A stretch of DNA of 64,000 bases from an uncultured beta proteobacterium (GTDB taxonomy: Bacteria > Pseudomonadota > Gammaproteobacteria > Burkholderiales > Burkholderiaceae): contig CAIPQU010000012.1 in NCBI GenBank assembly GCA_903867305.1, forward strand, positions 5,377 through 69,376, read 5' to 3'. A program made the position numbers and the translations under genes. Below, one piece after another: positions 1-37,752 of the stretch. Within the stretch, counting starts at the first letter, position 1. Each line of letters begins with the position of its first letter. Below the pieces are notes generated by a model. That model was not told the origin of the DNA. It worked only from the letters and a program-made list of their open reading frames with translations, and searched no databases.

Positions 1-208
1 GGAGCTTTTTGAAATGCTCTGGATCTTTACGTAAGTAGGTACCTGATTCTTGAATGTTACCAATTAATAAATATGGAATCGCCATCCGCGAATATGGTGG
101 TTCTGGCTCAGCGCCAATGATGAGAATTTGATCATGTGGAGAACGTTTTCGAATGGTCTCTGCTGCAACAATTCCAGCAGGACCATTGCCGATAATGATG
201 TGTTTCAT
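1..208 (-). CDS. aorC: FAD/NAD(P)-dependent oxidoreductase, AorC-like (5' part only, runs off the window)
   Basis: Not in the ORF track. Read by hand on the minus strand from ATG at 208: MKHIIIGNGPAGIVAAETIRKRSPHDQILIIGAEPEPPYSRMAIPYLL. It has a Rossmann GxGxxG and a PYSR motif and starts 4 nt after the aorB stop. Confidence 0.85.
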   Translation of the reverse strand, partial: MKHIIIGNGPAGIVAAETIRKRSPHDQILIIGAEPEPPYSRMAIPYLLIGNIQESGTYLRKDPEHFKKL

Positions 209-212
209 CAAA

Positions 213-2060
213 TTACAAACCCAAACGAGTTCGCGTATCCGACTTTAATTGCCCATCATGATCCCAACCACGCAAATCATAATACTCAGGCAACATCTTA
301 TCTAAACCGCTAATAGAACCTTTACCTGGGCCAGTTTTAGCTGCCTCTGTCATGAGTCGTTTTGGTAGCTTGTCATCTTTACTTGTAAATCCAGCACGAT
401 TATTAAAGTCACGCTCCATATTCCAAATACGCTCGCCAATGGTCGTTAAATTCTCAACAGTAAATTCATCTCCACATGCCGCCTGAAGTTGCGGTGCGAC
501 ATCAGCAAGTGTCCAAGCAAAACTCGTGAAGATACATATCCCAGCAGAGTCAAATGCTGCAGTAGCGTCTTGGAAAGCCTTCACTAATCCAGGTTTACCA
601 ACGGTATCTGCTGGTTCTGTTTTGACAGGAATGCCTAATACCTCTGAGGCAATGGTATATCCACGAAGATGGCAAGCTCCACGATTCGAGGTTGCATAGG
701 CTAAACCAATACCCTGAATCACACGCCCGTCATAAGCTGGAAACTCTTGTCCTTTAACACTCATCGACAAATCAGGCTGTCCATATTTAGCCGTCAATCT
801 AGCCGATCCTAAAGCGATTTCTTTACCAAAACCTTCACCTTTCGCCGTAATGTCCACAAAATGACAAAGTGCCTGCGCTGAACCAAACTTCGCATCGATA
901 CCGAGTTGTTCTTTGGTGAGAAGACCCATTTCATATAATTCCATTACGGCACCGATCGTTGCACCAAAGGTGATCGGATCAAAACCATCTTCATTACAAA
1001 TCATATTGGCATATTGCAAGGCTTCCAAATCATTGACGCCATTCGCAGCTCCAAGGGCCCAAGCAGCTTCATACTCAAGCCCCCCAGAGGCGCCAAAATA
1101 CTGAGGTTTATTTTGAATAGAAAAATGCGTCTGGTCAATTTTAGAAACTCTACCGCAAGCAATCGTACAACCAAAGCAGGCCTGATTAGTCACCAATTGT
1201 GCCTTACCATCACTAGCTCTTGGGGTTGCCATCGCTTCAGCCGAAATATCTTTTGCACCTTCAAATTGAACATCACGATGATTACGAGTTGGGAGTGCCC
1301 CCACTTCATTAATTACATTCATGAGCACCTGAGTACCATAGGTAGGTAATCCTTGACCCGTGACTGCGTTTCCAGCAAGGACCGCTTTAGCTGCTTTAGA
1401 TGCCGCCATGAAAGCCTTAGGATCTTTAAAGTTTCCAACACCTTTAGTACCCCTTACCGCAATCGCTTTAAGGTTCTTACTACCCATGACGGCTCCAACG
1501 CCTGAGCGTCCGGCTGCACGGTGTAAGTCGTTGACAACAGCGGCAAATAAAACCTGATTCTCACCAGCACGGCCAATACATGAGACACGAATTTGTGGAT
1601 CTTGGTGTTTCGCCTTAATCGCTGGCTCAGTATCCCAAACCGACTTACCCCATAAATCCGTTGCATCTAACAATTGAACTTCATCATCTTGAATCAATAG
1701 ATAGACAGGCTTAGGTGATTTACCTTCAAAAATGACCATATCCCAACCAGCCATTTTCAACTCCGCCCCCCAATACCCTCCGGAATTTGAACAAGCTATT
1801 GCGCCAGTGAGCGGTCCTTTAGTAATTACTGTGTAACGACCACCAGTGGATGCCATAGTTCCGGTTAAAGGCCCAGTAGCCCAAATAATTTTATTTTCTG
1901 GTGAAAGTGGATCTACTTTTGCATCCATTTCTTCCACTAAATATTTAGTCCCCAAACCTCTGGAGCCTAAATAATCTTTTGCCCACTGCATATTGAGCGC
2001 TTCAGATTGACAAATACCTTTAGTAAGGTTAACGCGTAGTAGTTTTCCGGCCCATGACAT
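213..2060 (-). CDS. aorB: Aldehyde:ferredoxin oxidoreductase (tungstopterin AOR family) catalytic subunit
   Basis: 615 aa with AOR motifs GPLTG, AAGRSGVGAVMGSKNLKAI, CFGCTIAC, NRGACH and GICIF. Confidence 0.95.
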   Translation of the reverse strand: MSWAGKLLRVNLTKGICQSEALNMQWAKDYLGSRGLGTKYLVEEMDAKVDPLSPENKIIWATGPLTGTMASTGGRYTVITKGPLTGAIACSNSGGYWGAELKMAGWDMVIFEGKSPKPVYLLIQDDEVQLLDATDLWGKSVWDTEPAIKAKHQDPQIRVSCIGRAGENQVLFAAVVNDLHRAAGRSGVGAVMGSKNLKAIAVRGTKGVGNFKDPKAFMAASKAAKAVLAGNAVTGQGLPTYGTQVLMNVINEVGALPTRNHRDVQFEGAKDISAEAMATPRASDGKAQLVTNQACFGCTIACGRVSKIDQTHFSIQNKPQYFGASGGLEYEAAWALGAANGVNDLEALQYANMICNEDGFDPITFGATIGAVMELYEMGLLTKEQLGIDAKFGSAQALCHFVDITAKGEGFGKEIALGSARLTAKYGQPDLSMSVKGQEFPAYDGRVIQGIGLAYATSNRGACHLRGYTIASEVLGIPVKTEPADTVGKPGLVKAFQDATAAFDSAGICIFTSFAWTLADVAPQLQAACGDEFTVENLTTIGERIWNMERDFNNRAGFTSKDDKLPKRLMTEAAKTGPGKGSISGLDKMLPEYYDLRGWDHDGQLKSDTRTRLGL

Positions 2061-2083
2061 AGTATATTTCCTCGATGAATTCG

Positions 2084-2557
2084 TTAAGCGTTCGTTTGAT
2101 TACCTAATTTATCTGCCCATGCACGCATTTTGTCTAAACCAGTCCAATCTGCATCAATATATGTAATAGCACCTGTTGGGCATGCATCAGCGCAGGCAGG
2201 ATCTCCTCCACATAAATCACATTTTTGTACTTTGCCGGTTTCTTGGACATAGTTAACTGTCCCAAATGGGCAAGAGATCGTGCAAACCTTACAGCCCACA
2301 CAAACATCTTCAATGACCACTTTGGCGCCAGTTGCAGCATCAATTCGAATAGCATCAACTGGACATGCTTTTAAACACCATGCTTCGTCACACTGAGTAC
2401 ATGTATAGGGAACTTTTTTTCCAGTTTCATGAAAATCAAATACTTTGATTCTAGATTTTGAAGGGTTAAAGACCCCATAGTTTTCAAAACTACAAGCCAT
2501 CTCGCACTGTAAACAACCAGTACATTTATCTGCATTAATATGGAGTGATTTTTGCAT
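2084..2557 (-). CDS. aorA: 4x[4Fe-4S] electron-transfer subunit (DmsB/HybA-like)
   Basis: Cys motifs CTGCLQCEMAC, CTQCDEAWCLKAC, CVGCKVCTISC and CDLCGGDPACADAC; directly upstream of AOR. Confidence 0.92.
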   Translation of the reverse strand: MQKSLHINADKCTGCLQCEMACSFENYGVFNPSKSRIKVFDFHETGKKVPYTCTQCDEAWCLKACPVDAIRIDAATGAKVVIEDVCVGCKVCTISCPFGTVNYVQETGKVQKCDLCGGDPACADACPTGAITYIDADWTGLDKMRAWADKLGNQTNA

Positions 2558-2620
2558 GAAAAGTCCCTGAAAATAAAAAGGTTATTCGATTTATTCTACT
2601 ATTTTCTAACTATACAATGA

Positions 2621-2680
2621 TTAGGGTTTTCCCTTGAGATTATCAATCTCAATTCTCAATTGCGATTAATTACATTAATC
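2621..2680. promoter_or_regulatory. Cluster of three inverted repeats in the divergent aor/bug intergenic region (putative operators)
   Basis: aggg-tttt-ccct (2623-2634), ttgagatt-atc-aatctcaa (2634-2652, perfect 8-3-8) and gattaat-tac-attaatc (2664-2680, perfect 7-3-7). Confidence 0.5.
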
Positions 2681-2818
2681 TAGGCGCTGGTTTCAATACA
2701 ATACCTTTTAAAGCATAAAATTTAAACTAAAAAAATCACCCTCAAAAGTGTGTTTAAGAGAATCTATCAGCATAAAAGAATAAATTCTTTGAAATTGAAA
2801 ATATCTCTAGGAGAAAAA

Positions 2819-3784
2819 ATGACACGTTATTTGTTCATTATCGGAATGTGCATCGCTCAGGTTTTAGCAGTAAATGCTCAAGCGCAAAATACTTACCCTT
2901 CTCGAGCTATCAAATTTATTGTTCCCATCACACCAGGGGGTAGTAATGATGTCGTAGCTCGTGTTATTGCCCAAAAACTAAGCGAGCAATGGAATCAGTC
3001 CGTAACGGTAGATAACCGTCCCGGTGCTGGTATGAATTTAGGTGCCGATCTTGTCGCCAAGAGCCCTGCTGATGGATATACCTGGTTACTTGGAGCCAAC
3101 AATATTTTTGTAACCAATCCTCACATGGGGAAAATGCCATTTGATGTTTTCAAAGACTTTACGCCAATCAGTCAAGTGGCCTTAGTTCCATTTGTATTAG
3201 TCGTTCACCCCTCAGTTCCAGCTAAAAACGTTACTGAACTCGTGGCTTATGCGAAGGCCAACCCAGATAAACTCAATTTTGGTTCATCCGGAAATGGATC
3301 TCCTCAACAACTCGCTACCGAAATGTTAAATCACGCTGCAGGTATTCAAATGCAACACGTACCTTATAAAGGTGCTTTACCAGTCATTACAGATTTAATC
3401 GGAGGTCGGCTGCAGGTCTTTATTGGGGCAGTTAATTCTTTATTACCTCACATAAAAGATGGAAAGCTGCGTTTAATTGCCAGCGCTGGTGGTAAACGGA
3501 TTTCTTCTTTTCCAGACCTACCAACCATTGCCGAAACAATCCCAGGTGTGGAGTTAGATGTTTGGCTTGGTGTATTTATGCCCGCCGGAGTTCCTAAAGA
3601 TATTATCAATAAAGTAAATGGCGATATCGTTCGAGTTCTTCAACTTCCTGAGGTGAAAGCAAATCTGAATGGACAAGGTATCGAAGCAGCGCCAAGTTCT
3701 CCAGAAGCATTAACGAATACTATTAAAGAAGACTATGCCCGTTGGGGTAAAGTCATTAAAGAAGCCAACATCAAAGCAGACTAA
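2819..3784 (+). CDS. Bug/TctC tripartite tricarboxylate transporter substrate-binding protein
   Basis: Signal peptide plus YPSRAIKFIVP..PGG, ENRPGAG-like and HVPYKG motifs. Start moved to ATG 2819 behind a GGAG RBS (track start 2750). Confidence 0.93.
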   Translation: MTRYLFIIGMCIAQVLAVNAQAQNTYPSRAIKFIVPITPGGSNDVVARVIAQKLSEQWNQSVTVDNRPGAGMNLGADLVAKSPADGYTWLLGANNIFVTNPHMGKMPFDVFKDFTPISQVALVPFVLVVHPSVPAKNVTELVAYAKANPDKLNFGSSGNGSPQQLATEMLNHAAGIQMQHVPYKGALPVITDLIGGRLQVFIGAVNSLLPHIKDGKLRLIASAGGKRISSFPDLPTIAETIPGVELDVWLGVFMPAGVPKDIINKVNGDIVRVLQLPEVKANLNGQGIEAAPSSPEALTNTIKEDYARWGKVIKEANIKAD

Positions 3785-3786
3785 AT

Positions 3787-5565
3787 ATGATTAATCACGA
3801 CAAACCAACTCCTAACGATCAGCCAGCCACTTATTGGGGTAGCGACTCCATTGCTGATTGTCTGCATGCTATGCAAGTACCCTATATAGCTCTCAATCCT
3901 GGTGCAAGTTATCGGGGTTTACATGACAGCCTAGTAAACCACTTAGGTAACCAAGCGCCGCAAATGTTGCTGTGCTTACATGAAGAGGTGGCAATCGCAA
4001 TTGCTCAAGGATTTGCTAAGGCTTCTGGCAAGATGATGGGAGCTCTAGTCCACTCTAACGTTGGTTTAATGCATGCCACCATGGCAGTCTTCAATGCTTG
4101 GTGTGATCGAATGCCAGTTTTAATGCTAGGTGCAACGGGGCCTTGGGATGCTGCACGCCGTCGACCATGGATTGACTGGATTCACACCGCTAGCGACCAA
4201 GGATCTTTAGTTCGTGACTTTACCAAATGGGATAACCAACCAGGCTCAATCCCAGCAGCAATCGAGGCACTTCTGCGTGGCGGACAAATCGCTCAAACCG
4301 CGCCCCGAGGTCCGGTTTATATTAACCTCGACGCCGCTCTCCAAGAGAGCAAAACCGAAGGCTTAATTCCCGTTCCTGATCCAATGCGGTTTAAAGCACC
4401 TCAATCACCACCCCCTGCACCAAGTGACGTTGAGCAAGCGGCTCAATTACTCTCAACAGCAAAAAATCCTGTCATATTGATGGGACGAATGTCTCGTAAC
4501 ATTTCAGATTGGGATCAGCGTATTCAATTTGCCGAAAAAATTCAGGCAGCAGTGATTACTGATCTTAAAAATGCTTCAAGTTTTCCTACAGATCATCCTC
4601 AACACGTTGGCTCTCCAGCGTATTTTATGACTCCAGAAGCCTGCGCTGCAGTACGTGATGCAGATGTGATCCTAATGTTGGACTGGGTTGATCCAGGAGG
4701 TGTATTTAAACAAGCTTTTCAAAATAATCCATGCCATGCAAAAATCATTCATGTCTCTTTGGATATTCATAGCCATCGTGGTTGGAGTATGGATGGTGGA
4801 AGTTTGCCACCAGTAGACATTTATATGCTCTGTGAACCTGACGATGCAATTGCAGCGCTCAATCAAACTGCTGCAACACAAGCGCTGAAGTCTTGGCCAA
4901 TAAAATCTTCCCTTTCAGCAATGCCCAATGATGATGTAGTTAGTCTACGTGCACTTGCTGAAGTTCTTCAAGAATCTACCAAAGATCTCAACATTTGTCT
5001 TGCTCGATTACCTCTAGGTTGGAATGGTGCTTACCGTCACTTCCATCACCCGATGGATTATCTTGGTGCTGATGGTGGCGGTGGTGTGGGTGCGGGGCCA
5101 GGGAATACTGTTGGGGTTGCTCTTGCGCTTCGAGATGCTAAATCTGATCGAATCCCCATTGCTCTCATCGGTGATGGTGACTTTTTAATGAGCAATACCG
5201 CTGTATGGACAGCCGTACATTACGGGATTCCATTATTGATCATTGTGTGTAATAACCATTCCTATTTTAATGATGAACTTCATCAAGAGCGCGTGGCGAA
5301 AGAACGTCAACGTCCCACAGAGAATAAATGGATTGGTCAACGCATGAGTGATCCAGAAATTGACATTGCACAAATGTCACGAGCTATGGGTGCAGAAGGT
5401 ATTGGTCCTGTGCGTCGAGCACAAGATCTTCCAGCAGCAATTGCTGAGGGACTGGCATTTGTTAAGGCAGGAAAAGTCTGCATTATTGATGCCTGTGTTG
5501 CTCCTGGATACGATGCCAACATGAGTGGCAACGCTGGCAATAACTCTGCCGTTCACAAACGTTAA
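3787..5565 (+). CDS. ThDP-dependent enzyme (acetolactate synthase/benzoylformate decarboxylase superfamily)
   Basis: LHEE catalytic Glu region and GDGDF...NN ThDP/Mg motif; 592 aa. Confidence 0.9.
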   Translation: MINHDKPTPNDQPATYWGSDSIADCLHAMQVPYIALNPGASYRGLHDSLVNHLGNQAPQMLLCLHEEVAIAIAQGFAKASGKMMGALVHSNVGLMHATMAVFNAWCDRMPVLMLGATGPWDAARRRPWIDWIHTASDQGSLVRDFTKWDNQPGSIPAAIEALLRGGQIAQTAPRGPVYINLDAALQESKTEGLIPVPDPMRFKAPQSPPPAPSDVEQAAQLLSTAKNPVILMGRMSRNISDWDQRIQFAEKIQAAVITDLKNASSFPTDHPQHVGSPAYFMTPEACAAVRDADVILMLDWVDPGGVFKQAFQNNPCHAKIIHVSLDIHSHRGWSMDGGSLPPVDIYMLCEPDDAIAALNQTAATQALKSWPIKSSLSAMPNDDVVSLRALAEVLQESTKDLNICLARLPLGWNGAYRHFHHPMDYLGADGGGGVGAGPGNTVGVALALRDAKSDRIPIALIGDGDFLMSNTAVWTAVHYGIPLLIIVCNNHSYFNDELHQERVAKERQRPTENKWIGQRMSDPEIDIAQMSRAMGAEGIGPVRRAQDLPAAIAEGLAFVKAGKVCIIDACVAPGYDANMSGNAGNNSAVHKR

Positions 5566-5585
5566 TTTTTATAAAAGAACTCGAT

Positions 5586-7049
5586 ATGTCAGATACTACA
5601 AACTATTTAAAAATATTACCGCAACATCGCGATCTTTATTATGGTGGCTCTTGGCATCAACCTAAGGGCGGTTATCAAGAAACGATGAATCCTGCCACAG
5701 GCGAATCTTTAGGACTCTGTGCTGAAGCCAATGCTGAAGATGTTGACGCCGCAGTTCAGGCTGCACACGAAGGTTTTTTAGTATGGAAAAAAATTAAACC
5801 TTTAGAACGCGCTAACCTCCTCAAAAAGGTTGCAGCTGTGCTTCGTGAAAACGCCTTTGAACTGGCCATGATTGATGCGGCAAACTGCGGGAACCCTATT
5901 AGCGAAATGCAACGTGACGCACTAATCGCTGCAGCACAAATCGATTTTTATGCTGGTTTAGCCACCGAAATCAAAGGCGAAACTTTGCCTATGGGAGATG
6001 ATATTTTGAATTATTCCGTGCGAGAACCCTATGGTGTTTGTGCACGAATCGTTGCTTATAACCACCCAATTATGTTTACTGCAGCAAAGATGGCTCCGCC
6101 ATTAATTGCAGGTAACACGGTCATCATGAAACCGCCCTATCAAGCTCCTCTGTCAAGCTATCGCATGATGGAGTTAATTGATGGCATTCTCCCCCCAGGT
6201 GTGCTGAACATTATTAGCTCTGGCGCGGTTGGTGGACAAGCACTTGTAAACCATCCCCTAGTCCCTCGACTCTCTCTGATTGGGAGCGTTCCTACTGGAC
6301 GAGCCATTGCAAAAGCAGCGGCAGATCAACTGAAACACGTGACACTAGAATTAGGTGGTAAAAATGCGTGCATTATTTATCCTGATGCTGATTTAAATAA
6401 AGCCATTACAGGTGCTATAAATGGCATGAACTTTACTTGGTGCGGTCAGAGCTGTGGTTCCACATCACGTTTATTCGTTCATTCCTCTATATACCAACAA
6501 GTCATAGACGGTCTTCTCAAAGCTGTTCAGCACTATAAACCAGGAATACCAACGGACATGTCAACCACAATGGGATCCATTGTTTCTAAAATACAGTGGG
6601 AAAAAATCATGCGATATGTTGAGATTGCCAAGGAAGATGGAGCACAACTCATCTATGGTGGGAATGTACCAAAGGACCCTACTCTTGCAAAAGGTTGGTT
6701 TATTGAGCCGACTATTTTTACTGGTGTTACTCAGAATATGCGCATCGCTAATGAAGAAGTTTTTGGTCCCATATTATCTGTCATCAAGTGGGAAGATGAG
6801 GATCAAATGTTTAACCAAGTTAATGCTGTTGAATATGGTTTAACGGCTTCTATTTGGACGACCAATCTTTCCAAAGCGCACCGAGCGGCAAGTCGAGTCC
6901 AAGCAGGATATGTCTGGGTCAACCATTCCAGTAGTCATTTTATTGGAGCATCTTTTGGAGGCTACAAACAATCTGGTATCGGTCGTGAAGAAGGCTTTGA
7001 TGAACTATTTAGCTACTCTCAACACAAAAACGTCCATGTAGTTTTGTAA
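5586..7049 (+). CDS. NAD(P)-dependent aldehyde dehydrogenase
   Basis: LELGGK, GQSC (catalytic Cys) and EEVFGP motifs. Confidence 0.95.
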   Translation: MSDTTNYLKILPQHRDLYYGGSWHQPKGGYQETMNPATGESLGLCAEANAEDVDAAVQAAHEGFLVWKKIKPLERANLLKKVAAVLRENAFELAMIDAANCGNPISEMQRDALIAAAQIDFYAGLATEIKGETLPMGDDILNYSVREPYGVCARIVAYNHPIMFTAAKMAPPLIAGNTVIMKPPYQAPLSSYRMMELIDGILPPGVLNIISSGAVGGQALVNHPLVPRLSLIGSVPTGRAIAKAAADQLKHVTLELGGKNACIIYPDADLNKAITGAINGMNFTWCGQSCGSTSRLFVHSSIYQQVIDGLLKAVQHYKPGIPTDMSTTMGSIVSKIQWEKIMRYVEIAKEDGAQLIYGGNVPKDPTLAKGWFIEPTIFTGVTQNMRIANEEVFGPILSVIKWEDEDQMFNQVNAVEYGLTASIWTTNLSKAHRAASRVQAGYVWVNHSSSHFIGASFGGYKQSGIGREEGFDELFSYSQHKNVHVVL

Positions 7050-7067: not shown

Positions 7068-8462
7068 TTAAAAAAAAGAATTGATCCACGCGTTGGTTTT
7101 AATGGGTGAGGAAGGATTACTGACAATTTGTTCTCGCAAAGAAACTACCGCATCTTGCAGATGAGGCGCATATTGCATGGCTAAGGTTTGTATTTTTTCT
7201 AACACAGTATGGGCTTCTAGTGGCCTCGCAGAGCTACCCAAAGCGGCCTCACAAGACTCAGAAAATTGTTGGCCATTATTTAACTGGATAGTCACTTTTG
7301 CAGGCCGATCATATGGCCAAGGACGAACATCCTTCATTTCTTGCATCACCACCTTATTTCTAATTTTAGCAATATGGGTGTTAGACATACTTTGATGTAA
7401 GAAATTTTCTGTGGCATGAGCTCCGTTAATGATGGTGGCAGCCGCTGCATGAGGAATCGAAAACTTTGCTGCAAGGGTTGTCGAAGGATTGGCATTATTA
7501 AAGTTCATCCCCATTTTGGATACTTCAATCACGATCGAAGAAATGGGTTCACCACCACGAAGGTTAGGATGTTGATCTAATATTTTTTCAATCGCCTCCA
7601 TCGAAGCATGGGCATGGTGGCAAGAGCCATAAAGCTTATGATAGCCAGCGGTAATAGTCCAATCAGAACCTAAATCCATACTAAGATGTTCAGGTTTTGA
7701 TGTTGCACCAAAACCCATTTGGTACACGTCATATGCCCCTGATGGCGTACCAAAAATATTGGCTTGTGCCATCTCACAGGCAAAATGACCTAACCAAGCC
7801 CCCGCAGCAGGCCAGGCATTTCTGATTAAGGCCCCTTGGATAGGGTGACTATAAGGACCCGGGGAAACCATAGTGCAAGCACCAGTGAGCGCATTCATAA
7901 AAAGGGTTTGATCAAAGCGCATCAAACTTGCATATCCTGCGGCAGAACATACGGCATTAAACACACCGTGCGGATGAAGTCTCGGCAATGTTTCTGGCCA
8001 AGACCTAGCAAACCTCGTGCCTATCTCATAGGCAACTACCACTGCTCTTAACATTTCTTGAATAGATAGATCATTGGCTTGCGCTGCAGCCAAGATTAGG
8101 GGTTGACTTAATGCGCCTGGATGAACTGCGGTTCTTGTATAACCATCATCTAGCTCGTTCCAAGTAATCGCCAAACCGTTTGCTAGTGCAGCGTCCATCA
8201 TCGATGTCTTTGGTCCATTCTTACGAAAAACAGTTGCTGAAGAAGATGATGATTTATGCAGTAGCTGATCGTGATACGTTTGTACCTCTGGCTCGTCAGA
8301 TGCAGATAGTGTAGCCGCAATGTTGTCACCTAAAATCAGAACGGCATTTTGCAAAACATGAGTAGGTATGTCTTCAAAACGAAGACGAGTAGCCCACTCG
8401 GATAGTTTTAATAAATGATCTGCAACACTATTTTTTAACTCGGTTTGGTTCACTGTATTCAT
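7068..8462 (-). CDS. MmgE/PrpD family protein (#1)
   Basis: ELDDG..HPG, HKLYGSCHHAH and AKFSIP motifs. Start set at ATG 8462, which overlaps the CoxL-like stop (ATGA). Confidence 0.88.
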   Translation of the reverse strand: MNTVNQTELKNSVADHLLKLSEWATRLRFEDIPTHVLQNAVLILGDNIAATLSASDEPEVQTYHDQLLHKSSSSSATVFRKNGPKTSMMDAALANGLAITWNELDDGYTRTAVHPGALSQPLILAAAQANDLSIQEMLRAVVVAYEIGTRFARSWPETLPRLHPHGVFNAVCSAAGYASLMRFDQTLFMNALTGACTMVSPGPYSHPIQGALIRNAWPAAGAWLGHFACEMAQANIFGTPSGAYDVYQMGFGATSKPEHLSMDLGSDWTITAGYHKLYGSCHHAHASMEAIEKILDQHPNLRGGEPISSIVIEVSKMGMNFNNANPSTTLAAKFSIPHAAAATIINGAHATENFLHQSMSNTHIAKIRNKVVMQEMKDVRPWPYDRPAKVTIQLNNGQQFSESCEAALGSSARPLEAHTVLEKIQTLAMQYAPHLQDAVVSLREQIVSNPSSPIKTNAWINSFF

Positions 8463-10849
8463 GATGGAGATTTTTGTAAAGCATGCCATATTTTATTGGA
8501 TGTGAAAGGCATTTCTATACCTCGTACCCCAACAGATCCTAAGGCATCCATCATCGCACTGGTGATTGCTGCAGGAGCACCTATAGTTCCTGACTCACCG
8601 CATCCTTTAACCCCCAAAGGATTATGTGTACAAGGTTGAGTTTCATCGGCCTCTGAAAGAAAGTCGGGCAATATATCAGCCCGTGGCATTGCATAATCCA
8701 TAAAAGAACCCGTCATTATCTGACCTGAGTCTGGCTCATAAACAGCACTCTCAAATAAAGCCTGCCCAATACCTTGGGCAATAGCACCGTGCACTTGTCC
8801 TTCAACAATCATCGGATTAATCACTGTACCGACATCATCTATGGCAATGTAAGAAAGCAACTTGGTGACACCAGTTTGAGGATTGATTTCAATCTCACAT
8901 GCTTGCGCACCATTGGACCAAGTCAGATTTGGTGGGTCAAAGAATGCATTTTCGTGAAGCACTGGCTCCATTCCAGGAGGTAAATTATGTGCATAGGTAG
9001 CTGCACGTGCAACTTGGTACCAGTCCAATTTTTCGTTTGATTTGTGAGATATAAAATAACCTAATCCATCATTGACTTGATGCTCAACATCGACCACATC
9101 ACAGCCAAGCAAGTGCGCAGCTAATAACTTCGCTTTATCAATAATTTTTTTACAAGCCATTGTCATCGCTCCACCTGCAATAACCATTGACCTCGATCCA
9201 AAGGTTCCTGTTCCATAAGGAACTCGACCGGTATCACCTTCTACTAATTCAATCATCGATAAAGGCAATCCAATTTTTGAAGCAATCACCTGTGGGAATG
9301 TCGTCGCATGTGCTTGACCATGACTATGCGTACCACACATTAACAAAATGCTTCCATCTGCAGATACACGAATATCTGCAGAATCAAAAAAGCCAGCTCT
9401 AGCACCAAACATCCCTGCATACTTTGAAGGTGCTACACCAGAACTTTCTAGAAAATAACAAATGCCAAACCCACGTATCATGCCATTTTCTTTTGAAATA
9501 GCACGGCGTTTTTCAAATCCAGCAAAGTCAGATGCAACTAGAGCCCGATCGAAAAGACGTTGAAAGTCACCACTGTCATAAATAGGACCTAATGGAGTTG
9601 CATAGGGCATCTCACTCGATTTAATGAAATTTTTACTGCGCAGTTCCATACGATCTATACCAGTTTGTATGGCGGCTTCTTCTATTAATCTCTCTAAAAC
9701 GAAACATGCTTCAGGTCGTCCCGCGCCACGATAGGCGTCTGTTGGAACCGTATTGGTAAACATCGCATCGACTTCTGCAAATACCGCAGGAATTTTATAA
9801 GGTCCTGACAAAACTGCGGTATAGACGGTTGTTGGTACTGCAGCCCCAACCGTAGAAATATAAGCCCCAACAGCGGCATAAGTTTTTACACGAACGCCAA
9901 GGATGTGACCTTTTTCATCTAAGGCCATTTCAGCAGAAGTCATATGATCTCGAGCTTGGTAGTCGCTAATAAATGCTTCACTTCGTGTCGAAGTCCACTT
10001 TAAGGTTAACTTCAATTTTTTACAGGCCCAGGCCAGAATAGTTTCTTCGGGATATAACTTTCCTTTAGTGCCAAAACCACCACCCACATCTGGCGCAATC
10101 ACCCGTATTGAATTTTCCGGAAGATTTAATTGCTCTGAAGTTAATTTACGGATGTGATGTGGTACTTGTGTTGCAGACCAAATCGTGAGCTCATGTCCAT
10201 CGTCTCCTAAAGATGGTGAAACTTGGGCAAGAACAGCTCTTGGTTCAATAGCAGCACAAACAATACGATGATTTTTAATTTCGACACGCACATGATGTTT
10301 AGCTTTAGCAAAAGCCGCATCCACAGGCTCTTTCGCTCCGCGGTGAAATTTCACACAAAGATTATTCGGCGCTTGTGAATGCAATTGTGGGGCAGATTCT
10401 TTTGCCGCGTCTCGAACATTCACAACAGCATCAAGGACTTCATAATCTACTATGATGAGTTCCGTAGCGTCCAATGCCTGATGGGCTGTTTTTGCAACCA
10501 CCATCGCAACAATTTCACCAACGTGGCGAACGCGATCAATCGTGATGGAATACCGAGGGGGCTCATTCATTTGAGAACCCTCTGCGCCAGGAATGATCCA
10601 CAGTGGCGTCATTTTACCAACGCCATCATTGAACATATCCTGTCCAGTCAGTACCGCATATACACCAAGCGCTTTTTGTGCGTCTGAGACATTGATGCTC
10701 TTAATAAGTGCATGTGCATGTGGCGACCGTAAGAAAGCACAGTAATATGTATTTTCAGGAAGAAGATCTGCAACAAATTGCCCCTTACCCTTTAATAATC
10801 GATTATCTTCCCGACGTAAGACCGTTTGACCAATTCCTTGAGGATGCAT
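8459..10849 (-). CDS. Molybdenum hydroxylase large subunit (xanthine dehydrogenase family, CoxL form II-like)
   Basis: 796 aa with DVGGGFGTK, AYRGAGRPE (form II signature, not AYXCSFR), HGQAHAT, GSRS and GVKGCGE. Confidence 0.92.
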   Translation of the reverse strand: MHPQGIGQTVLRREDNRLLKGKGQFVADLLPENTYYCAFLRSPHAHALIKSINVSDAQKALGVYAVLTGQDMFNDGVGKMTPLWIIPGAEGSQMNEPPRYSITIDRVRHVGEIVAMVVAKTAHQALDATELIIVDYEVLDAVVNVRDAAKESAPQLHSQAPNNLCVKFHRGAKEPVDAAFAKAKHHVRVEIKNHRIVCAAIEPRAVLAQVSPSLGDDGHELTIWSATQVPHHIRKLTSEQLNLPENSIRVIAPDVGGGFGTKGKLYPEETILAWACKKLKLTLKWTSTRSEAFISDYQARDHMTSAEMALDEKGHILGVRVKTYAAVGAYISTVGAAVPTTVYTAVLSGPYKIPAVFAEVDAMFTNTVPTDAYRGAGRPEACFVLERLIEEAAIQTGIDRMELRSKNFIKSSEMPYATPLGPIYDSGDFQRLFDRALVASDFAGFEKRRAISKENGMIRGFGICYFLESSGVAPSKYAGMFGARAGFFDSADIRVSADGSILLMCGTHSHGQAHATTFPQVIASKIGLPLSMIELVEGDTGRVPYGTGTFGSRSMVIAGGAMTMACKKIIDKAKLLAAHLLGCDVVDVEHQVNDGLGYFISHKSNEKLDWYQVARAATYAHNLPPGMEPVLHENAFFDPPNLTWSNGAQACEIEINPQTGVTKLLSYIAIDDVGTVINPMIVEGQVHGAIAQGIGQALFESAVYEPDSGQIMTGSFMDYAMPRADILPDFLSEADETQPCTHNPLGVKGCGESGTIGAPAAITSAMMDALGSVGVRGIEMPFTSNKIWHALQKSPS

Positions 10850-35721: not shown

Positions 35722-35749
35722 TTTCAATATTTATGTTAAATTAAGCATT

Positions 35750-35835
35750 GGATGAAACAGGGGTGCTGATAGAGGTCTATTGGCTGAGATATACCCTTCA
35801 CTCGAACCAGATAATGCTGGCGTGGGGAGTTTCGA
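35750..35835 (+). ncRNA. TPP (thi-box) riboswitch
   Basis: GAAAC-AGGGGTGC...GGCTGAGATATACCC...CCAGATAATGCTGGCGTGGGGA-GTTTC; P1 = GAAAC/GTTTC; directly upstream of thiC. Confidence 0.92.
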
Positions 35836-35871
35836 AAATATAGTCTCTGTTCATCCTTCGCTAATGCCTAG

Positions 35872-37752
<1,881 letters not shown>

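Follow-up and report, generated by a model that had tools for sequence, protein, structure and literature searches.

Does an oxygen-respiring freshwater bacterium encode a complete tungsten-dependent aldehyde oxidoreductase (AOR), and would such an operon be out of place there? The question is raised by one end of a 64,000-nucleotide stretch of DNA (the window) from an uncultured betaproteobacterium, in which an initial annotation had read a complete AorABC operon of the tungsten family in an apparently aerobic host, from a lineage with which tungsten biochemistry is not usually associated. The answer that we consider very probable is that an O2-respiring Polynucleobacter carries an intact aorABCDE operon encoding an orthologue of the tungsten-dependent, NAD-linked aldehyde oxidoreductase.

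Gene content and conservation of the aor operon

The gene aorA (2084..2557, minus strand) encodes a polyferredoxin electron-transfer subunit of 157 amino acids, with matches to multiple Fer4 Pfam families and, in the translated reading frame, 16 cysteines arranged in four ferredoxin-type [4Fe-4S] motifs; a Shine-Dalgarno-like motif, AGGGA, lies 9 nt ahead of its ATG. It is followed by aorB (213..2060, minus strand), by homology the AOR-family subunit that holds tungstopterin and performs catalysis (615 aa; Pfam AFOR_N, E = 4e-80, and AFOR_C, E = 2.5e-131), and by the first 69 codons of aorC (1..208, minus strand), which encodes the FAD-containing, NAD-binding subunit (Pyr_redox_2) and reaches past the window start to position 4319 of the contig. 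The ferredoxin-like subunit, AOR and FAD subunit thus lie on the minus strand in the order A-B-C at the positions first assigned to them. For aorC, the first in-frame start is a TTG at 211, and the ATG at 208, 4 nt past the aorB stop codon, yields MKHIIIGNGPAG; because this sequence aligns with residue 1 of AorC from Aromatoleum aromaticum, the ATG at 208 is the correct start, as initially proposed.

On the contig, aorC is whole (421 aa, positions 4319–5584) and is followed by an 84-aa gene of the ThiS family (MoaD/ThiS-like, with a GG end) and then by a 103-aa gene with a GGG end, so that the operon comprises five genes (aorABCDE), not three. That aorC is complete can thus be seen on the contig but not from the window, which shows only the 69 codons. 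All five reading frames are intact, the GC content across the operon (0.40–0.45) is the same as in the remaining window, and aorB, with a dN/dS of ∼0.02 against its nearest relative, is under purifying selection. The locus is a real, intact aorABCDE operon and is probably functional.

The top PDB matches of all three subunits are chains of the A. aromaticum enzyme (8C0Z): chain A for AorB (72% identity, gapless over 615 residues, E = 0), chain C for AorA (76% over 153 gapless residues, E = 1.7e-81), and chain E for the full AorC protein (∼60%, E = 6e-149). E values of this size show that the likeness is not due to chance, and layout and sequences together bear out the earlier observation that the operon matches that of the A. 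aromaticum tungsten enzyme. AorB retains the four FS0 cysteines (C295, C298, C302, and C509), the contacts to the W-bis-pyranopterin and Mg (R75, N92, G94, R181, A182, D361, D504, and I508), and the substrate residues Y468, F511, and F514; position 510 is Ile here and Val510 in the structure paper, a conservative change. The second-shell residues T243, E331, Y443, and H464 correspond, in an alignment with 1AOR, to T243, E313, Y427, and H448 of Pyrococcus furiosus, which are listed as second-shell catalytic residues of AOR sensu stricto (PMC12096430). At position 484 the present AorB has Ala where that of A. aromaticum has His; a catalytic difference was considered and rejected, since the family-conserved His (P. 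furiosus H448) falls at H464 in both AorB proteins; we therefore treat the "His484" of the structure paper as a numbering slip. All 16 AorA cysteines occupy their A. aromaticum positions, and the alignment with 8C0Z chain E shows identity at all four FAD/NAD contacts of AorC (R41, M42, R179, and Q294 in A. aromaticum), while P419, M420, and R424, the last A. aromaticum residues to contact neighboring subunits, fall outside the aligned region. Judged by homology, the locus is orthologous to the tungsten-dependent, NAD-linked AOR of A. aromaticum, classified as type N within clade 87 of the WOR family (PMC12318220).

The C-terminal helical tail of AorA noticed in the initial annotation is present at residues 137–152. 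Its codons (D137–G152, DWTGLDKMRAWADKLG; 2102..2149, minus strand) align with the stretch DWTGLARMQAWAAKAN of 8C0Z chain C, and the segment is kept in all 78 of 78 full-length relatives with the consensus A[ND]WTG[LI]DKMKQWADKLG. Loss of residues 138 to the end of A. aromaticum AorA abolishes filaments (Winiarska 2023, PMC10413684), and the C-terminal helix of ∼20 residues is specific to the AOR_Aa subclade (PMC10413684). By analogy, the enzyme described here would also form filaments, short stacks of AorAB protomers joined through this helix and capped by one AorC.

In the mechanism that we propose, AorB would carry a W-bis-pyranopterin together with a single [4Fe-4S] cluster and would accept widely differing aldehydes, oxidizing them to carboxylic acids. 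The electrons would leave AorB by way of AorA, with its four [4Fe-4S] clusters, reach the FAD of AorC, and reduce NAD+. Tungstate would enter via a TupABC transporter, the pterin would come from the ordinary Moco pathway, and AorD (GG end) and AorE (RGGG end) would presumably help in cofactor maturation. The likely role is aldehyde oxidation or detoxification beside conventional NAD aldehyde dehydrogenases. By analogy we expect aldehyde-oxidizing activity, NAD coupling, and expression under oxic conditions, and the O2 tolerance and H2 use reported for the Aromatoleum enzyme may carry over to this one.

Tungsten supply, maturation genes and genomic context

The initial annotation had named tupABC, moeA paralogues and a downstream moaD as genes to be sought. 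The tupABC genes are present on a separate contig from aor (C7:47246–49504), as a gene set for a TupA-type periplasmic binding protein with adjoining permease and ATPase genes. The best PDB match of TupA is the periplasmic tungstate-binding protein of a tungstate ABC transporter (3LR1, E = 1.9e-70), whose STTTST motif aligns with SSTTST here. NCBIfam models for TupA and TupC ranked first and that for TupB second, after a generic ABC_perm1 subfamily model, with scores for TupA, TupB, and TupC (232.6, 184.0, and 114.3 bits) that fall short of the strict equivalog thresholds (400, 320, and 400). Moco genes occur in two sets (moaA, mobA, moeA and moeA, moaD, moaE) and include two moeA paralogues, a feature that is not specific to tungsten use. 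The MoaD-like aorD follows aorC. The proposed tungsten link thus stands, with tupABC, two moeA genes, and a downstream MoaD-like gene in a host that appears (see below) to respire oxygen and not to denitrify.

An alternative is that AorB carries molybdenum, or accepts either metal, with tup serving other enzymes. TupA occurs in 186 of 201 Polynucleobacter genomes (∼93%), with or without aorB, and the genome encodes FdsA, a TAT formate dehydrogenase, and a Nas-like reductase (Mo/W bis-MGD enzymes) together with a Mo hydroxylase, all of which need the same pathway. We accordingly rejected the co-occurrence of tup and aor in the genus as a sign that tup serves aor: with TupA nearly universal and AorB in only 24% of genomes, tup is not to be taken as dedicated to the AOR, and in Polynucleobacter it may mainly serve formate dehydrogenases. 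Against molybdenum, in the purified A. aromaticum AOR no Mo at all was found, against 1.8 W for each holoenzyme (PMC6365974), AOR-family enzymes are treated in a review titled "Obligately Tungsten-Dependent Enzymes" (PMC12096430), nearly all residues that contact the tungsten cofactor are conserved, and in 21 of the 80 related loci tupBCA homologues are physically linked to aor, lying immediately upstream of aorA. A molybdenum or mixed-metal AorB is, in our view, highly improbable; by analogy with the A. aromaticum enzyme, tungsten would be the metal of this AorB.

Among the 80 relatives, aorA, aorB, aorC, and aorD are syntenic in 80, 80, 79, and 76, respectively, and an aorE-like gene is syntenic in 58, its product always ending in RGGG. 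AorE had no Pfam match in any of 26 members and no PDB sequence match, and its confident AlphaFold model (pLDDT 90) had no Foldseek match in the PDB at E ≤ 0.001. The best Foldseek matches were E2 acyltransferase cores (TM 0.4–0.56); the "MoaD related protein" 1V8C matched only weakly (TM ∼0.5). A MoaD homologue is thus unsupported by Pfam, by PDB sequence search, and by PDB fold search; this protein of ∼100 aa, Pfam-less and with an invariant free RGGG end, could be an uncharacterized carrier or maturation factor specific to the tungsten cofactor of the clade.

The intergenic gap between aorA and the divergent tctC (2558..2749) is, from its position, the presumed site of the operon promoter. 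Promoter-like matches over contig positions 3300–8200, which include this gap, numbered 14 vs. 12.4 ± 3.3 in shuffled sequences and were not in excess, and a terminator scan of the operon stretch gave one site, on the opposite strand within aorA, fewer than the 4.4 in shuffles. No Moco/W-co riboswitch or other Rfam family was found in the gap; a search that covered the window together with the contig end that carries aor, the two moeA loci, and the tup locus returned as its sole match a TPP riboswitch at 35749–35845. Upstream of aorA lie tctC and genes for a TPP enzyme and an NAD aldehyde dehydrogenase (the latter two at 3787–7049), and urtABC lies downstream of the operon. We rejected the tctC/TPP-enzyme/aldehyde-dehydrogenase arrangement as a conserved clue to the substrate, because it was found only in the closest relative (L003), and for the same reason a single pathway uniting these genes with the AOR can be suggested only weakly.

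The same genes bear on whether the enzyme works in the direction assumed here. As side activities, A. aromaticum AOR reduces NAD+ and organic acids with H2 (PMC9295118), and the active-site residues are kept in the present AorB, so that H2-dependent NAD+ reduction or acid reduction might be its role in place of aldehyde detoxification. The TPP enzyme and NAD aldehyde dehydrogenase nearby, in a neighborhood common only to the closest relative, nonetheless suggest aldehyde metabolism, and a primary role in H2 use or acid reduction seems to us very unlikely beside one in aldehyde oxidation.

Genomic position also raises the question of whether the operon serves its host at all. In a typical Polynucleobacter it lies between secA and argJ, and its site in this genome is different; close AOR orthologues are patchily present, in 24% of the species genomes of the genus, and aorB contains in-frame stops in two of them (G146 and G554). 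These observations would fit a recently acquired or decaying passenger, functionless in its host. Such a passenger would, however, hardly be expected to keep five intact reading frames, an aorB dN/dS of ∼0.02, nearly all functional residues, and a GC content equal to that of the remaining window, and we regard this explanation as extremely improbable and the operon as probably functional.

The host and its relation to oxygen

The host is a large-genome, freshwater member of the GTDB genus Polynucleobacter. In support of this placement, the loci of two genomes assigned to the same genus have coordinates identical to those of loci in P. victoriensis and P. yangtzensis. The genome encodes a CtaD (aa3 oxidase) that scores over the NCBIfam threshold, as well as a subunit of cytochrome bd. 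The only molybdopterin-family proteins in the genome are the Nas-like reductase, FdsA, the TAT formate dehydrogenase, and NuoG. Neither NarG nor NapA was found in the assembly, although in 174 contigs a respiratory gene might be missed, despite an estimated completeness of 100%. No NirK was found in the genome, and the lack of a second COX1-family protein indicates that NorB and cbb3 oxidase are also missing. Matches to PF02239 (NirS) were weak (23–30 bits, in proteins of 328–348 aa) and were rejected as cd1 nitrite reductase, being too short and too weak; we interpret them as propeller repeats. The host appears to be oxygen-respiring rather than denitrifying, in agreement with its first description as apparently aerobic.

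The most serious alternative is that the operon works only at low O2 or in anoxic microniches (the hypolimnion, particles), the enzyme being too O2-sensitive for oxic cells and the "aerobic tungsten enzyme" illusory. The cytochrome bd oxidase in the genome is of high affinity, and the name of the metagenome bin that represents the nearest relative (RH-...) may denote a reservoir hypolimnion sample. The A. aromaticum AOR, whose tolerance of O2 is only relative, was studied in cells grown anaerobically (PMC6365974), and a 2025 review gives Brevibacillus massiliensis as the sole aerobe in which production of an AOR has been demonstrated (PMC12096430). On the other side, no anaerobic respiration enzyme among those searched for was found in the genome. 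The operon is moreover widespread, being present in Limnohabitans, Hydrogenophaga, and Polynucleobacter, genera generally held to be aerobic. The A. aromaticum enzyme is also further stabilized in cell extract (Arndt 2019, PMC6365974). Confinement to low oxygen is in our judgment unlikely, though it keeps appreciable weight.

Distribution and comparison with known tungsten enzymes

Relatives of this AOR are encoded at at least 589 loci of species-representative genomes, and of the 176 genera sampled from the order, 25 contain close orthologues. The three-subunit clade had already been placed in aerobic or denitrifying mesophiles (Arndt et al., 2019, PMC6365974). Together with the near-universal TupA of the genus, this contradicts the notion of a lineage not usually linked to tungsten; as the enzyme type is common in such bacteria, the operon is not surprising here. 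Published work already covers this class of enzyme, how it is built, and its occurrence across aerobic and denitrifying Proteobacteria, and this copy shows no structural departure. A full-text literature search, assessed by titles and abstracts only, returned no paper whose title or abstract joins Polynucleobacter to tungsten or to an AorABC-type enzyme.

The value of the locus is modest, ecological and practical. The operon is present in cultured strains, such as P. victoriensis MWH-VicM1 and P. yangtzensis MWH-JaK3, which could be used to test AorABC production and activity in an obligately oxygen-respiring bacterium. Polynucleobacter is among the most abundant groups of freshwater bacterioplankton. 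More speculatively, and with rather less than even confidence, we suggest that tungsten is a routine trace metal of Polynucleobacter, with the AorABCDE nanowire enzyme in about a quarter of its members and perhaps produced and active where the water is fully oxic. In that case AorABC would offer an aerobic means, common in lakes, of removing aldehydes, e.g., photochemically produced ones, and tungsten availability could shape this activity.

Among characterized AORs, the homodimeric P. furiosus enzyme (1AOR) has the same catalytic fold (E = 1.8e-175 vs. AorB), but it consists of one kind of subunit, with no polyferredoxin or FAD partner, is linked to ferredoxin, and is hyperthermophilic and extremely sensitive to O2. 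Closer in lifestyle is the tungsten AOR of the obligate aerobe B. massiliensis, for which aldehyde detoxification has been proposed (Thorgersen 2022, as summarized in PMC12096430); according to that summary it is monomeric, belongs to another subclade, and is so far the one AOR demonstrated biochemically in an aerobe, whereas the Polynucleobacter AOR is a predicted one. The WorABCSL complex of Acetomicrobium mobile (9MQX; PMC12318220), also of clade 87, supplies the second-best PDB matches of AorB (WorL, E = 2.3e-206) and AorA (WorS, E = 1.8e-34) and has the nanowire principle via a C-terminal helix in common with the present enzyme. It bifurcates electrons with a three-subunit Bfu module, however, and the aor locus has one FAD/NAD subunit and no Bfu genes.

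The nearest counterpart is AOR_Aa of A. aromaticum EbN1 (PDB 8C0Z; Arndt 2019, PMC6365974; Winiarska 2022, PMC9295118; Winiarska 2023, PMC10413684). That organism is a denitrifying degrader of aromatic compounds, whereas none of the denitrification enzymes looked for was found in the Polynucleobacter host, and the A. aromaticum enzyme has been characterized biochemically, whereas the present one is predicted. The genomic neighborhood is also unlike that of A. aromaticum, with urtABC downstream and tctC, the TPP enzyme, and aldehyde dehydrogenase upstream, and the C-terminal tail of AorC differs. Nevertheless, the two loci have the same gene order, aorA, aorB, aorC, aorD, aorE, with identical AorB residue numbering and all Fe-S cysteines in common.

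An Aromatoleum-type aorABCDE unit

The window covers positions 5377-69376 of contig C12, and the aor genes lie on the reverse strand at its start. aorA (2084-2557, 157 aa) matches many 4Fe-4S ferredoxin Pfam families, aorB (213-2060, 615 aa) matches AFOR_N (E 4e-80) and AFOR_C (E 2.5e-131), and aorC, a Pyr_redox_2 ORF, starts at either 211 (TTG) or 208 (ATG) and continues past the window start. The product of the ATG at 208 begins MKHIIIGNGPAG and aligns with residue 1 of Aromatoleum aromaticum AorC; the start at 208 proposed in the initial annotation is therefore correct. Read from the contig end (L002), full-length aorC encodes 421 aa and is followed by aorD, an 84-aa ThiS/MoaD-family gene with a C-terminal GG, then by a 103-aa gene with a GGG end and by urea ABC transporter genes. 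With aorC complete and two small genes downstream, the unit is thus aorABCDE, matching the five-gene unit described for Aromatoleum (Arndt et al., 2019; PMC6365974). The annotated A-B-C order of ferredoxin-like, AOR and FAD subunits was retained, and the downstream moaD it had proposed to look for is aorD.

The 103-aa aorE-like gene (L002:3737-4048, reverse strand, 1.3–1.6 kb past the window start) is syntenic with the aor genes. Its homologues share an N-terminal MGCT..E..WLP motif, and all 58 syntenic ones within the best 80 of at least 589 loci end in RGGG. Pfam and PDB sequence searches gave no match for AorE; its AlphaFold model is confident (pLDDT 90) and had no significant match among PDB folds, with a weak resemblance to the Thermus “MoaD related protein” 1V8C (TM about 0.5).

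The top PDB matches for AorB, AorA and AorC were chains A (E 0), C (E 1.7e-81) and E (E 6e-149) of the A. aromaticum AOR solved by cryo-EM (8C0Z; PMC10413684). AorB is identical to its A. aromaticum counterpart at 442 of 615 residues (72%) with zero gaps, and AorA shares 76% identity across 153 residues. Using the cofactor, cluster and pocket residues listed for that structure (PMC10413684), we found that AorB retains all four FS0-cluster cysteines (C295, C298, C302, C509), the residues that contact the cofactor and Mg (R75, N92, G94, R181, A182, D361, D504 and I508), and the substrate-pocket residues Y468, F511 and F514, whereas position 510 is Ile here and Val in A. aromaticum. The second-shell residues of AOR sensu stricto, T243, E313, Y427 and H448 in Pyrococcus furiosus (PMC12096430), correspond in an alignment with 1AOR to T243, E331, Y443 and H464 of AorB, and all four are retained. 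The structure paper names “His484” of A. aromaticum AorB as a conserved catalytic candidate (PMC10413684); residue 484 is Ala here (window about 607-609), and the family-conserved His (P. furiosus H448) maps to H464 in both proteins, so that 484 is probably a numbering slip.

All 16 AorA cysteines occupy positions identical to those of Aromatoleum AorA, and R41, M42, R179 and Q294 of AorC are identical to A. aromaticum in the PDB alignment. The C-terminal helical tail attributed to AorA is present (residues 137-152) and aligns with the A. aromaticum segment needed for filaments, which are abolished when AorA is deleted from residue 138 (PMC10413684); every one of the 78 full-length relatives keeps this segment. 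With a dN/dS of ∼0.02 against the nearest relative among the matches listed, aorB is evolving under strong purifying selection. The 8C0Z matches and the retained residues bear out the operon's identity as a tungsten-type AorABC with the A. aromaticum layout.

Candidate tungsten supply genes and an apparently aerobic host

Tungstate uptake genes, one of the checks proposed at the outset, were found as a tupABC cluster on another contig of the host genome (C7:47246-49504) by profile search and a PDB match of TupA, whose nearest relative of known structure is 3LR1, a tungstate-binding protein from Geobacter (E 1.9e-70). In the NCBIfam ranking the TupA and TupC models came first and the TupB model second, and all three scores were under the strict equivalog cut-offs. 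The anticipated moeA paralogues are also present, one in a moaA-mobA-moeA group and the other in a thrC-moeA-moaD-moaE group. Together, tupABC, the two moeA copies and aorD are in keeping with a link of the operon to tungsten. In 21 of the best 80 of at least 589 relatives, homologues of tupBCA sit immediately upstream of aorA, and this association speaks well for the use of tungsten in the clade. Of the 201 Polynucleobacter species genomes, 186 encode a TupA homologue (65–84% identity) and only 49 an AorB; tungstate uptake therefore seems to be part of the core repertoire of the genus and not bound to aor, perhaps serving formate dehydrogenases.

The genus of the host is Polynucleobacter in the GTDB sense, as the aorB coordinates of two congeneric genomes, G074 and G016, are exactly those of the P. 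victoriensis MWH-VicM1 (L012) and P. yangtzensis MWH-JaK3 (L011) loci. Within it, the host genome (3.14 Mb in 174 contigs; window GC ∼42%) falls into a larger-genome sublineage that also contains genomes G197 and G199 as well as a metagenome bin from freshwater (AorB 96% identical). At 3.1 Mb its genome is ∼1 Mb above most in the genus (1.5–2.4 Mb), and besides G197 and G199 just a few genomes come near it in size; Bug-family receptor genes are numerous in the window. The genome encodes one heme-copper oxidase, an aa3-type CtaD over the NCBIfam cut-off, and a cytochrome bd oxidase. No second COX1-family protein was found in the genome, hence neither NorB nor cbb3. Four members of the Molybdopterin family are encoded, namely a Nas-like assimilatory reductase, FdsA, a formate dehydrogenase with TAT export and NuoG, with neither NarG nor NapA among them; NirK was not found in the genome, and a Cytochrom_D1 search of it returned only weak repeat matches in short proteins. 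This inventory agrees with the apparently aerobic host first described. Among the observations that would speak against the annotation and can be checked in silico, neither a lack of tungsten uptake or cofactor genes nor an anaerobic or denitrifying host was found.

Distribution and genomic setting

A scan of species-representative genomes returned at least 599 candidate stretches, at least 589 of them with an encoded relative. The best 80 of these all share at least 79% identity and include Polynucleobacter, Limnohabitans, Hydrogenophaga, Tepidimonas, Herminiimonas, Methylibium, Rubrivivax, Polaromonas, Rhodoferax and others. Gene order is conserved in these 80 loci (aorA and aorB 80/80, aorC 79/80, aorD 76/80, aorE-like 58/80). 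Of the 201 species genomes in the genus, 49 carry aorB (33 of the 136 of high quality), including P. victoriensis MWH-VicM1 (G074:C3:768050-769894) and P. yangtzensis MWH-JaK3 (G016:C1:458528-460372). The gene also occurs in 2 of 29 genera sampled from the GTDB family and, at the level of the order, in 40 of 401 genomes (25 of 176 genera). Two in-frame TGA codons in the aorB of G146 (C1:120047-121891), and a split gene with in-frame TGA and TAA in G554 (C1:1798507-1800116), suggest that some lineages have lost the operon. With at least 589 relatives, 49 genus genomes carrying aorB and 186 carrying TupA, the claim that such an operon is unusual in this kind of host did not hold.

In small-genome, typical Polynucleobacter (sp. 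31A-FELB, P. yangtzensis) aorABCDE lies between secA and argJ, whereas in the host it is flanked by urtABC and the cluster with tctC; its position has thus shifted within the genus. A 796-aa molybdenum hydroxylase large subunit is encoded at 8459-10849 on the reverse strand; in several of the related loci (L016, L029, L030, L032, L042, L052), some from Hydrogenophaga, a homologue of 47–49% identity lies upstream of aorA, no more than a few kb away. Elsewhere in the window, a TPP riboswitch (Rfam RF00059, 60.6 bits; 35749-35845, forward strand) directly precedes a 625-aa ORF (35875-37752) taken from position and size to be a putative thiC, which would be an ordinary arrangement.

Predicted function and relation to known enzymes

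By homology, AorB would oxidize aldehydes at a W-bis-pyranopterin site, with electrons predicted to pass from FS0 via the clusters of AorA to the AorC-bound FAD and on to NAD+, and AorAB units would stack on an AorC cap via the AorA helix. Divergent from aorA, the products of three genes (2750-7049, forward strand), namely a Bug/TctC receptor, a TPP-dependent enzyme of 592 aa and an NAD aldehyde dehydrogenase of 487 aa, could make and oxidize an aldehyde; with AOR, this set recalls the 2-oxoacid decarboxylase/aldehyde dehydrogenase/AOR trio of Aromatoleum phenylalanine catabolism. Among the matches listed, the neighborhood is common only to the host and its closest relative (L003), and typical Polynucleobacter have the secA/argJ setting; therefore no specific substrate can be assigned.

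A full-text literature search returned no paper linking Polynucleobacter with tungsten or an AorABC-type enzyme by title or abstract. According to a 2025 review (PMC12096430), Brevibacillus massiliensis is the one aerobe for which production of an AOR has been demonstrated. As a genomic pattern, an AOR operon in aerobes is not new: Arndt et al. (2019; PMC6365974) had already assigned the three-subunit clade to mesophiles that are aerobic or denitrifying. The observation of the operon is confirmed: its type and tungsten link were right, and its unusualness was wrong. The class for such enzymes is WOR clade 87 type N (26% of 444 members; 2025 PNAS, PMC12318220), and the locus here is a further example of an already described enzyme type.
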